A stretch of 8,419 bases of DNA from a virus (lineage: Duplodnaviria > Heunggongvirae > Uroviricota > Caudoviricetes): the IMG/VR virus record IMGVR_UViG_2671181188_000016. One strand, given 5' to 3'. The translations under genes were made by a program, and so were the position numbers. Below, piece after piece: positions 2,086 through 5,927 of this stretch (its first letter is position 1; every line of letters begins with the position of its first letter). Under the pieces are notes generated by a model. That model searched no databases. It was not told the DNA's origin and saw only the letters and a list, made by a program, of their open reading frames with translations.

Positions 2086-2310
2086 ATGAATCAAAATACA
2101 CAATTTCAATCACTATCAGATCGCGTAATCCGTGAGGATGAATGCCGTAAGTTAACAGGAGTGTGCCGCACTACACGCTACGAACTGGAGAAAAAAGGGA
2201 ATTTCCCGTCACGCCGTAATCTGGGTGGTCGTTCAGTAGGTTGGCTGCTTTCCGAGGTTATGGAATGGGTTAAAAGCCGGGATCGTATTAATTCAGGTAA
2301 GGCAGCGTAG
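2086..2310 (+). CDS. alpA: AlpA-family (prophage CP4-57-type) transcriptional regulator / excisionase-like HTH protein, 74 aa
   Basis: Sequence RKLTGVCRTTRYELEKKGNFPSRRNLGGRSVGWLLSEVMEWVKSR matches the AlpA signature (HTH followed by FP...LG.RSVGW..E..EW). Position downstream of int is typical of satellites and cryptic prophages. Confidence 0.85.
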   Translation: MNQNTQFQSLSDRVIREDECRKLTGVCRTTRYELEKKGNFPSRRNLGGRSVGWLLSEVMEWVKSRDRINSGKAA

Positions 2311-2335: not shown

Positions 2336-2355
2336 AGGCGACCTGTGGCGGTCGC
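2336..2355 (-). terminator. Possible minus-strand terminator hairpin between convergent alpA and the RHH-like gene
   Basis: GGCGACC (2336-2342) and GGTCGCC (2349-2355) are inverted repeats with a 6-nt loop. On the minus strand the hairpin is followed by TTTGTTTTAT (plus 2326-2335). No T-run on the plus strand. Confidence 0.3.
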
Positions 2356-2444
2356 CAATGGGAAAACACTAAACATAAGCCCGAACATCATAGCGATTTG
2401 CTGTCTGGTGGGCAATGTGCTCAGTGTGCTGGCTTGCTGGTGGA

Positions 2445-2624
2445 CTATTCCTGCTCTTTGGCCTTGCGGCGCTGGCGGCGTTTGATCTCGCCTTCAAGTG
2501 CCGAAACGATAAATTGCCCAGTGCTTTCGCCTTCTTCCTTTAAATTTTCTACGGCGTCAGCTATTGCATGGGGGACTCGTGCCTCAAGTTTTTTGGATTT
2601 TCCATTAACTGCTTTCGTTGCCAT
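2445..2624 (-). CDS. Small ribbon-helix-helix-like DNA-binding protein, 59 aa from the internal ATG (longest ORF extends to 2807); candidate repressor/regulator
   Basis: Minus-strand ORF; the ATG at plus 2622-2624 has a good SD (AAGGAA, about 7 nt spacing), whereas the longer 120-aa form has a hydrophobic, shadow-like N-extension. KKLEARVPHAIADAVENLKEEGESTGQFIVSALEGEI fits a beta-strand plus two helices as in RHH proteins; basic C-tail. Divergent from a promoter carrying direct repeats. Confidence 0.5.
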   Translation of the reverse strand: MATKAVNGKSKKLEARVPHAIADAVENLKEEGESTGQFIVSALEGEIKRRQRRKAKEQE

Positions 2625-2645: not shown

Positions 2646-2727
2646 GTGGCTGACAGTATACACACAAGAAAATGGAAAAACACTATTGACGTGGCTGACA
2701 CCTGTTACTAGTATAGTGGCTGACACC
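2646..2727. promoter_or_regulatory. Divergent promoter/operator region: rightward sigma70-like promoter (-35 TTGACG 2686-2691, 17-bp spacer, -10 TAGTAT 2709-2714) within three direct repeats GTGGCTGACA at 2646-2655, 2691-2700 and 2716-2725
   Basis: Near-consensus -35/-10 with 17-bp spacing read from the sequence. The 10-bp repeat occurs three times (copies 2 and 3 extend to GTGGCTGACACC): copy 2 overlaps -35/spacer, copy 3 the predicted start site, copy 1 a leftward -10-like TATACT (plus 2655-2660) upstream of the RHH gene. Confidence 0.5.
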
Positions 2728-2743
2728 TTTATTGAGGTAATCG

Positions 2744-2791
2744 ATGAAAAGACAAAGCCCGCAGGTGCTACCAACACCAACGGGCTTCTAA
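2744..2791 (+). CDS. Possible 15-aa leader peptide (MKRQSPQVLPTPTGF) just downstream of the rightward promoter
   Basis: ATG 2744 preceded by GAGGT with about 5 nt spacing; stop TAA 2789-2791. Too short to call with confidence. Confidence 0.2.
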   Translation: MKRQSPQVLPTPTGF

Positions 2792-2823
2792 CAACCAACG
2801 ATAGCAACAGTATCGAGGTAGCT

Positions 2824-3027
2824 ATGAGAAATCATACCACACACCCGCAAGGGCGGGACTCGCACAACCTGAATAAATACATCTGGCGTTTTCTGGCCCT
2901 GAGTGCCGGAGAATCTCAAATCATCCACGTAACCGCCTGGACGGAACGCGAAGCGCGTAGCCGTTGCCCGTCAGGTTGTGTTGCTGTATTTGTCGCCCGT
3001 ATTCGTCAGGGGGTGTGCCGTGCTTAA
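2824..3027 (+). CDS. Hypothetical small protein, 67 aa; uncertain, may be untranslated leader
   Basis: Downstream part of track ORF 2320..3027; ATG 2824 with GAGGT about 6 nt upstream. Arg/Cys-rich, not obviously protein-like; the upstream part of the track ORF overlaps the minus-strand RHH gene and the promoter and is rejected. Confidence 0.25.
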   Translation: MRNHTTHPQGRDSHNLNKYIWRFLALSAGESQIIHVTAWTEREARSRCPSGCVAVFVARIRQGVCRA

Positions 3028-3205
3028 AACCTTCCGCGTTTTTTCCCGTGCTGTTAACAAGCGCGGCTATACCGTTGGCATCACGCAGAACGTGAAGGCC
3101 GTTAATATGCAAGCGGCGATTGATTCAGTAATCAGTAATTCCGGTAAAGCAGGTTTATCACATGTAATTATTGCAGCAGTACATGAATTAAAAGGGGGGC
3201 ATTAA
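3020..3205 (+). CDS. Hypothetical small protein, 61 aa from GTG 3020 (track ORF from 2978); stop overlaps the next start
   Basis: ORF track 2978..3205. In-frame GTG at 3020 is preceded by an AGGGGG SD-like element; stop TAA 3203-3205 overlaps the ATG at 3205 (TAATG). Confidence 0.35.
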   Translation: MLKTFRVFSRAVNKRGYTVGITQNVKAVNMQAAIDSVISNSGKAGLSHVIIAAVHELKGGH

Positions 3206-5692: not shown

Positions 5693-5927
5693 AAAAGCCC
5701 TCTACCTCTTCTACCCGAATGAAATAAACGCATATTATTCAATATGATAAGTGGGTAGAGGGGCAGGTAGAAGGCAAATAAAAGCCCTCTACCCCCTCCA
5801 CCTTGATTAAGGTCGTTTGTGAGGGGCGGGTAGAGGATGGGTAGAGGGCCACGAAAAGCCCTCTACCCATCTGAAAGCCGCGCCATTACTGACCTGAAAG
5901 ATGATTAGGTAGAAGAGGTAGAGGAGG
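5693..5927. repeat. Candidate replication origin: iteron array of GCCCTCTACC-type repeats in both orientations around an AT-rich segment
   Basis: Direct copies AAAAGCCCTCTACC at 5693-5706, 5780-5793 and 5854-5867. Inverted copies (GGTAGAGGG...) at 5754-5764, 5829-5838, 5839-5850, plus degenerate GGTAGAAG/GGTAGAGGAGG at 5908-5927. AT-rich stretch 5718-5750 between the first convergent pair. Lies directly 3' of the primase/helicase gene. Confidence 0.65.

Follow-up and report, generated by a model that had tools for sequence, protein, structure and literature searches.

A candidate cis-antisense RNA over the start of an Icd-like gene in an EcCICFT073-type chromosomal island

The leader and the first genes behind the early promoter

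The DNA considered here, referred to as the window, is the whole 8,419-nucleotide stretch of the IMG/VR virus record IMGVR_UViG_2671181188_000016. It is identical to a chromosomal segment of E. coli O157:H7 strain 7.1_Anguil, where the island lies between cspD/yljB and clpS. The element is a phage-inducible chromosomal island (PICI) of the EcCICFT073 type, with int, alpA, a P4-type primase-helicase gene and terS following one another in this order, a length of approximately 8-10 kb and a fixed chromosomal site. The segment under study, positions 2722-3205, follows the early promoter and consists of a 5' untranslated region (UTR) of approximately 100 nucleotides (nt) and two real genes under purifying selection, the first of which resembles the host cell division inhibitor gene icd and is called icd below. 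On the opposite strand, the leader and the first icd codons appear to be the template of a conserved small antisense RNA, a well-supported but unverified assignment. The features of the region are collected in Table 1.

The open reading frame (ORF) 2824-3027 scored 63.5 bits against the NCBIfam model NF033153 (host cell division inhibitor Icd-like), for which the curated cut-off is 25, and matched phrog_6196 at 1.6e-31. The latter profile reaches 25 residues 5' of the icd ATG, and its score rose from 109 to 144 bits when those residues were included. The following ORF, 3020-3205, matched phrog_3672 from end to end (1-61/61, 6.6e-27), and a coding sequence (CDS) is annotated in RefSeq at both positions. 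The ratio of non-synonymous to synonymous substitution rates (dN/dS), calculated according to Nei-Gojobori for genes of the window against homologues in the fetched loci, was 0.25-0.56 for icd (median 0.42, 74 comparisons), 0.18-0.26 for 3020-3205 (2 comparisons) and approximately 0.18 for the neighbouring gene. Since both genes are under purifying selection, the untranslated leader comprises only positions ~2722-2823. An earlier interpretation made without database searches, here the sequence-only reading, had described the whole of 2722-3205 as poorly coding, with weak ORFs of odd composition, and had named purifying selection on these two frames as the outcome that would speak against this description. 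That outcome was obtained, and approximately 380 of the 484 bases belong to the two genes.

P4 Kil (65 aa; P4 8365-8171, minus strand) scored 76.1 bits against NF033153, and because P4 Kil and the window ORF both match this model, the window gene is a homologue of the Kil/Icd family. The relationship is visible only via the profile and through intermediates (loci L004 and L063); pairwise BLASTP of the window Icd against P4 Kil gave no alignment.

The early promoter that had been placed ahead of the leader by the sequence-only reading was recovered by the consensus scan as a sigma-70-like TTGACG-17-TAGTAT element. It is accompanied by three exact direct repeats which are presumed to be operators, with the product of the divergent ylcI gene, a YlcI/YnfO-family protein (dN/dS median 0.27, calculated as above), as the presumed repressor of the early promoter. 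Analogous repeats, GTGGGCCACACCT, are found at the corresponding place in CFT073. A candidate -10 element of ylcI, TATACT (window 2660-2655, minus strand), adjoins the first operator repeat, and an AAGGA Shine-Dalgarno sequence (SD) is found 6 nt before the ylcI ATG. The same TATACT is found in CFT073 (positions 2374-2379 of locus L161). The hexamer at 2655-2660 is likely the ylcI promoter, arranged back to back with the early promoter.

The strongly SD-led mini-ORF of 15 codons pointed out earlier does exist within the leader, with its GAGGT SD, but it is not conserved. Of 87 distinct homologous leaders, 4 have a frame with an ATG, 15 codons and an SD-like sequence; all 4 belong to the GTGGCTGACA operator family, and the mini-ORF is probably fortuitous. 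A role as a leader peptide was ruled out because the mini-ORF is confined to this one operator family. The consensus scan listed no plus-strand intrinsic terminator in 2722-3205, in line with the earlier failure to find a clean terminator in this stretch.

Table 1. Positions of annotated, predicted and candidate features (window coordinates unless an accession is given)
Feature	Position	Strand	Basis and remarks
alpA, Phage_AlpA family regulator/excisionase	2086-2310	+	Pfam PF05930, 3.4e-16
Eta-like ORF, 235 codons	2320-3027	+	SD GGGGGA; starts 10 nt after the alpA stop; last 67 codons are icd
ylcI terminator	2337-2356	-	Consensus terminator scan
ylcI, divergent small YlcI/YnfO-family gene	2445-2624	-	NCBIfam NF041551, 4.2e-17
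Three exact direct repeats GTGGCTGACA, presumed operators	2646-2655, 2691-2700, 2716-2725		Overlap the divergent promoters
Early promoter, sigma-70-like, TTGACG(2686)-17-TAGTAT(2714)	2686-2714	+	Consensus scan; predicted start ~2721-2722
Mini-ORF MKRQSPQVLPTPTGF, 15 codons	2744-2791	+	GAGGT SD 5 nt upstream
Candidate cis-antisense RNA, ~80 nt	2747-2825	-	Fold, covariation, strand asymmetry, covariance model R1
Predicted terminator hairpin of the candidate RNA	2754-2788	-	Fold and tail; two-part stem, apical stem GGUG/CACC, then GUCUUUUC
5' domain of the candidate RNA	2791-2822	-	Hairpin CGAUA-7 nt-UAUCG (2799-2815) within outer stem GCUACC/GGUUGU
Predicted antisense promoter, extended -10 TGGTATGAT, no -35	2839-2831	-	Comparative pattern; reverse complement of ATCATACCA (icd codons 3-6)
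icd-like gene, 67 aa, P4 Kil/Icd family	2824-3027	+	NF033153; SD GAGGT 2815-2819
61-aa gene, GTG start	3020-3205	+	phrog_3672; RefSeq WP_000920689.1; 8-nt overlap with the icd end
Candidate RNA equivalent, CFT073	NC_004431 1380766-1380853	-	
Candidate RNA equivalent, O157 strain 7.1_Anguil	NZ_CP076232 2374913-2374998	-	

Conserved structure on the minus strand

Homologues of the region were collected from IMG/VR with exact words. A 17-mer from icd codons 7-12 recovered >120 contigs, 113 of which were true homologues, and a second scan with a divergent SD/ATG word, an anchor that does not cover the site of the predicted antisense promoter, added 33 more distant homologues. These DNA scans were far more productive than a scan of genome contigs with the Icd protein, which returned only 3 loci. 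Single-linkage clustering of the upstream regions produced one mosaic cluster and was replaced by clustering of the divergent proteins. The upstream promoter/operator regions are of many unrelated types, and the part from the first hairpin to approximately icd codon 18 is common to all homologues.

On the minus strand, the candidate RNA of the window folds with -32.6 kcal/mol (z = -4.34). Its complementarity covers the icd SD, the first two bases of the AUG (2824-2825; 2826 lies outside) and the whole 5' UTR 3' of ~2747. Among 89 distinct homologues 99.3% of the pair cells are standard pairs, and 8 of the 20 pairs carry compensatory double changes. None of 500 shuffles reached any of the observed measures, and slid partners were paired to 30-64%. 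The stem of the second hairpin occurs in the variant CGUUA/UAACG in 20 sequences (AU to UA), and its 7-nt loop has 25 different sequences in the 89 homologues. The 3' arm of the outer stem reads GGUUGU in the window and GGUGGU in most homologues. In loci of the L035 type the first hairpin is wholly swapped for an unrelated sequence which still pairs. The covariation analysis suggested by the sequence-only reading thus did yield a conserved structure, but on the minus strand and not in the sense leader.

The assignment to the minus strand is based on the asymmetry of wobble pairs. In an alignment of 81 homologues, 181 G·U cells were counted on the minus strand versus 15 on the plus strand, and 97.7% versus 87.5% of the pair cells were canonical. 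The minus-strand RNA was the more stable one in 81 of 81 homologues, with mean energies of -36.7 versus -22.5 kcal/mol. Of the 10 nt that follow the first hairpin 3', a fraction of 0.50 is T on the minus strand, versus 0.10 on the plus strand. With R1, a covariance model derived from the homologue alignment, the minus strand of the window scored 83.7 bits and the plus strand 13.5 bits, the latter from the hairpin only.

These figures bear on two explanations that place the function in the plus-strand RNA. In the first, the leader itself would regulate, either as an attenuator controlled by the mini-ORF or as a processed RNA similar to the CI RNA of P4. The leader does fold on the plus strand (2722-2835, -32.6 kcal/mol, z = -4.94), its 5' ACCUU pairs with the icd SD, the SD of the mini-ORF is good, and relatives of the L063 type carry C4 and isrK just 3' of the module. 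However, the 181 wobble cells become A·C mismatches on the plus strand, and no U-tract follows the hairpin there; by these two observations a plus-strand attenuator was ruled out. The rarity of the mini-ORF and the lack of any C4, isrK or c4-a1b1 match in the window, in a search in which P4 scored strongly, likewise count against a regulatory sense leader, to which the lowest probability among the explanations is given. In the second, the structure would act within the icd mRNA, by protecting its 5' UTR from decay or by tuning the rate of translation through partial occlusion of the SD, and no antisense transcript would be made. The second hairpin abuts the SD (2811-2819), the plus-strand fold is significant, and the CCC-GCAA-GGG hairpin formed by icd codons 7-10 has a GNRA loop in each of its three variants. 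Still, the stability in all 81 homologues, the G·U counts and the R1 scores all favour the opposite strand, which makes an effect within the icd mRNA highly improbable.

Because of its T-rich tail on the minus strand, the first hairpin looks like the intrinsic terminator of a minus-strand transcript: a GC-rich hairpin whose stem covaries is followed by a U-tract. Its only function could then be that of an insulator, which would keep antisense transcription out of the divergent promoter region, or of an attenuator in a long ylcI leader, without any separate small RNA. The hairpin does lie, in the minus sense, just upstream of the ylcI promoter region, so that read-through would reach ylcI, and face-to-face promoters are used in the switches of P2- and 186-type phages. 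Such a function would nevertheless leave unexplained the covarying 5' hairpin, the invariant segment opposite the SD and AUG, and the conserved TGnTAnnnT located 6-8 nt 5' of that segment. In addition, ylcI has a plausible -10 of its own (TATACT, see above), present also in CFT073, as well as an SD. A hairpin that serves ylcI transcription alone is therefore regarded as unlikely.

The sequence predicted to direct transcription of the antisense RNA shares 8 of 9 positions with the extended -10 consensus TGnTATAAT, and is found 6-8 nt 5' of the anti-AUG segment. Over all homologues the hexamer occurs as TATGAT, TATAAT, TATTAT, TAATAT, TACTAT, TATGCT and TAAGAT. TAnnnT is kept in every homologue examined, and the full TGnTAnnnT is present in all but a few, which have a P4-like N-terminus. 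In the second, more distant set, plus-strand positions 8, 12 and 13 (hexamer positions 6, 2 and 1) were invariant in 32 of 32 homologues, and positions 15 and 16, which form the TG, in 29 of 32, those of the THPQGR type. Variation in this set was found at positions 9, 10, 11 and 14, i.e. hexamer positions 5, 4 and 3 and the n. Each change at the promoter site alters an Icd residue (N/D/E, H/I/L/S, T/I), and neither synonymous changes nor variable third codon positions were seen. A promoter would be expected to vary in this way, a protein under purifying selection would not. The promoter and the terminator are both predictions, made from our reading of the sequence together with the comparative pattern. 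As a separate observation, the small hairpin of icd codons 7-10 lies at window 2844-2853 (plus strand), with loop variants GCAA, GGAA and GAAA in relatives, all of the GNRA type and accompanied by changes of the residue among Q, E and K; viewed on the minus strand, this palindrome occupies the -35 region of the antisense promoter predicted here.

The same codons bear on a further explanation, in which no RNA has any function and the conservation stems from the Icd N-terminus, from coding of the C-terminal part of the long eta-like ORF described below, and from a recombination joint of mosaic islands. Most loci have an icd frame without stops across the region, the phrog_6196 profile extends upstream of the ATG, and the matches in E. 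coli genomes form a mosaic in which no other segment is shared as widely. Against this, all variable sites in icd codons 3-11 are non-synonymous and no third position varies, the opposite of purifying selection at the protein level. The stems covary while the loops change freely and alter residues in doing so, and the strand asymmetry of the G·U pairs would find no explanation in coding. Conservation by coding and recombination alone is thus quite unlikely.

The sequence-only reading had noted that the equivalent leader of P4 houses the RNA immunity system, and had suggested a leader peptide or a small RNA in a similar role. The correspondence of position is borne out. In the P4 positive control C4 (the CI RNA, 74.9 bits), isrK (the seqA region, 60.8 bits) and c4-a1b1 (44.1 bits) were all matched between the early promoter and kil. 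The models were C4/P4 CI RF01695 (clan CL00128), isrK/seqA RF01394 and c4-a1b1 RF03163. With the same search, none of the three matched anywhere in the window on either strand at E<=10, and no family of Rfam 15 matched any part of the window at that threshold. A search of 12 relatives at the gathering threshold found no match in the leader; outside it, matches were limited to L063 (C4 and isrK) and L051 (a tRNA and the int-alpA RNA). Locus L063 carries, at 11113-11490 on its minus strand, the same promoter-hairpin-hairpin-SD-ATG module and the same first 18 icd codons. After codon 18 there follow a second promoter (TTGATC-18-TATGAT), isrK (69 bits), C4 (72.6 bits) and then a kil with a P4-like N-terminus. 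This locus combines the antisense module with a P4-type CI cassette, from which it follows that the leader module is separable from the cassette, and the island of the window is one without it. An RNA cut from the sense transcript in the manner of C4 was rejected as a candidate, the supported structure being on the minus strand. The control element of the UTR is therefore neither a leader peptide nor a P4-type CI RNA, and RNA-based control is the part of the earlier suggestion that holds as the best reading. Taken as a whole, the sequence-only reading was partly right: correct as to RNA control, and mistaken about the coding status of 2824-3205, the leader peptide and the strand.

The module is widespread. 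Outside the training set, R1 recovered EcCICFT073 (87.4 bits) and a Shigella locus (51.7 bits). The Shigella locus has a different icd start region, with TATGAT lacking the TG, the anti-SD/anti-AUG segment, and a terminator with UUUGCUUUUUG. Each element has one R1 copy, on the minus strand only, with the exception of L012, which has two. No R1 match was found in P4, nor in an E. albertii element carrying the CI cassette instead. A BLAST search with the 98-nt module gave matches in 1248 of 5426 complete E. coli genomes; in 686 of them the match spanned at least 80% of the module. Curated phage records gave no match to the module. The Icd-like CDS is the sole feature annotated under the genome matches, and in the matches examined the module is nowhere annotated as an RNA. 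No description of this RNA was found in the literature on Icd-like proteins, on PICIs and antisense RNAs, or on type I systems. A word search for 'antisense' and 'Icd' gave 0 occurrences in the PICI papers PMC6092414 and PMC11773190. In PMC10111431 'antisense' occurs 0 times, and all listed passages with 'icd' refer to the isocitrate dehydrogenase integration site. In L012 the two copies, at 9683-9768 and 10475-10554 (94.5 and 52.5 bits), are 790 nt apart, and the upstream copy lies ahead of an ATG (MAGTQHTQTHPKF...), from which a long ORF continues in frame into the second module.

An eta-like frame and a model of antisense control

The icd frame extends far upstream. The eta-like ORF runs antisense through ylcI and through the promoter/operator region, so that the early promoter is located inside it. 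Over positions -600 to -95, the icd frame is free of stops in 65 of 96 homologous loci, and the other two frames average approximately 10 stops. The open frame holds across several, though not all, of the families with unrelated divergent genes. A start motif MT(H/D)KTKA was found in 18 distinct loci, and in 15 of these it is in frame and open to the icd ATG. In CFT073, the in-frame ORF encodes 428 aa (L161 1457-2743). Pfam gave no match on the long ORFs, and PHROGs matched only the Icd part, plus a weak stretch in CFT073. This stretch, residues 51-81, resembles an anti-repressor (Ant/Bro-like; phrog_130, 6.4e-05), which fits the description of eta-like genes as a 'Bro network' (PMC10111431).

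The arrangement has the nested organization of eta and kil in P4: a long ORF begins after alpA, is in frame with the short gene, ends at the kil-type stop and contains an internal promoter. According to PMC10111431, which summarises Forti et al. 1999 on this point, P4 kil is translated from a constitutive internal promoter and is subject to immunity. By the same account, translation of eta depends solely on the upstream late promoter, is coupled to the alpA homologue and prevents termination. Eta-like 'Bro zone' genes, as well as C4/isrK RNAs in several PICIs, were already noted in PMC10111431. The eta parallel is therefore not new; an antisense RNA is mentioned neither in this source nor in the EcCICFT073 papers.

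A cis-antisense RNA at the icd start, combined with an eta-like bypass, is preferred with moderate confidence as the best explanation of the locus. The RNA would start at ~2825 from the extended -10 TGGTATGAT and end at ~2747 at the hairpin with its U-rich tail. In the quiescent island, the YlcI-family protein would hold the divergent promoters via the three GTGGCTGACA repeats. The antisense RNA would pair with leaky early transcripts from the 2686-2714 promoter over the icd SD and AUG and so block initiation, the first contact probably being a loop-loop interaction at the hypervariable 7-nt loop, which would make recognition island-specific. The untranslated icd message would be degraded or, by analogy with P4, terminated by Rho, so that icd and the replication genes stay off. 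In this way the antisense RNA probably keeps the cell-division-inhibitor gene of the island silent. Upon induction the helper phage would turn on alpA, and upstream transcription would carry ribosomes through the 235-codon ORF into icd. As elongating ribosomes are independent of the icd SD, this upstream route would bypass the antisense block, in parallel to P4, where translation of eta from PLL is seen to bypass the CI immunity acting on kil. That expression of alpA is induced by the helper phage, and that alpA is an activator, is described for EcCICFT073 (PMC6092414).

Several points weigh against this model. The predicted antisense promoter has no -35 and was not listed by the consensus scan, which requires one. 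The scan did not list a minus-strand terminator either, because the stem is interrupted and the scan needs a short loop; the U-tract (GUCUUUUC) is interrupted as well. Stops are present in the upstream icd frame of 31 of the 96 loci. The excess of C over G in the leader and 5' part of icd is only mild in the composition profile (skew -0.05 to -0.23), so that a Rho-loading site is no more than a possibility here. Toxicity of the window Icd-like protein is assumed from P4 Kil, which is known for cell killing (PMC10111431). The homologues were gathered with exact 17-19-nt anchors next to or inside the region and are related and mosaic, so that their conservation is partly ascertainment and the counts do not represent independent events. 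Finally, the same nucleotides are also constrained by the icd/eta frame and by the icd SD.

A broader role for the minus-strand RNA, as the long-sought immunity factor of Gram-negative PICIs, constitutively made and loop-specific between islands, is doubtful. The global repressor in such elements was described as unclear (PMC6092414). An RNA of this kind would block the first early gene directly and the replication genes via polarity, and would allow several PICIs to reside in one cell without cross-repression. It would serve as an alternative, and sometimes an addition, to the P4 CI cassette.

Compared with the immunity region of P4 (PLE, seqA, CI RNA, seqC, kil within eta, and PLL upstream), the locus is likewise placed between the alpA/vis homologue and the replication genes, has the same first gene (NF033153), and contains a long ORF that begins right after alpA/vis and ends as kil. 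The control of kil translation, bypassed by upstream translation, would by the analogy proposed here be a further likeness (P4 facts from PMC10111431). The window differs in that CI/C4, isrK and seqA are missing, and in that its predicted RNA is encoded opposite the sense leader, with a putative promoter and terminator of its own, instead of being processed from that leader. A divergent YlcI-family gene and operator repeats are found where P4 has the sense-strand RNA cassette. In EcCICFT073 and other Gram-negative PICIs, int, alpA, divergent small genes, the icd-like gene, small ORFs, DUF4222, the P4-type primase and terS occur in the same order, and CFT073 has the same RNA module and the 428-aa ORF in frame with icd.

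In CopA/CopT of plasmid R1 and RNAI/RNAII of ColE1, antisense RNAs with stem-loops determine copy number and incompatibility. The candidate shares with them conserved stems and a recognition loop that varies between related elements, which would here provide element-specific control. It differs in its target, the translation start of a killer gene and early operon and not a replication primer or rep leader, and kissing of the loops would be the presumed mode of contact. In SymR/SymE of E. coli and in type I toxin-antitoxin pairs, a cis-encoded antisense RNA lies over the start of the toxin gene. The present RNA resembles SymR in its length of approximately 80 nt, in a predicted promoter inside the 5' coding end of its target, and in its complementarity to the SD and the first two bases of the AUG. 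By the analogy with Kil, the target would be a small growth-inhibiting protein in both cases. In contrast, Icd-like proteins are not hydrophobic membrane peptides; by inspection, the 67-aa Icd contains no stretch of approximately 20 hydrophobic residues. Moreover, icd is the first cistron of an operon on a mobile island and not a stand-alone module. SymE and RalR are exceptions among type I systems in lacking a hydrophobic peptide, and the missing hydrophobicity therefore makes type I membership less probable without affecting the analogy. The general definition of type I toxin-antitoxin systems applied here is that of PMC8594479 and PMC8309996.

Should the model be correct, it would add a further layer of RNA control to PICI induction, explain the promoter-like evolution of the first codons of Icd-like genes, and extend the bypass logic of P4 eta/kil to PICIs without a CI RNA. 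For annotation, it is a warning that the N-terminus of called Icd-like genes overlaps a candidate regulatory RNA gene. The presence of the module in the model island EcCICFT073 makes the proposal directly testable, and the module is common among E. coli genomes.

Other features of the island

The window contains, in order, the integrase gene, an ORF, alpA, the divergent YlcI/YnfO-family gene (minus strand), the Icd-like gene, four small ORFs and a DUF4222 gene, followed by the P4-family primase gene, small ORFs, terS and a capsid-like gene.

Upstream of alpA, at 1991-2085, there are two perfect palindromes, GTGATATCAC, spaced by 21 bp. They are followed by a hairpin at 2050-2079 (-19 kcal/mol, z = -3.35), the U7 tail of which stops exactly at the alpA ATG and the 3' arm of which contains the alpA SD (GAGGA). 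This hairpin could terminate the int transcript and, in addition, mask translation of alpA. The int-alpA RNA of Rfam, present in the relative L051, was not matched in the window.

Directly 3' of the primase gene, at 5693-5925, dense iterons occur in both orientations, with three copies of AAAAGCCCTCTACC and five of GGTAGAGG(A/G), and the field includes a perfect 17-nt inverted pair 192 nt apart. The field is probably the replication origin of the island. In the segments 6800-6822 and 7015-7075, AAAAGTTACAC is repeated twice just 5' of the terS start, and by inspection (A)AAGTTAC words recur within the terS ORF; these repeats may constitute a packaging or binding site.

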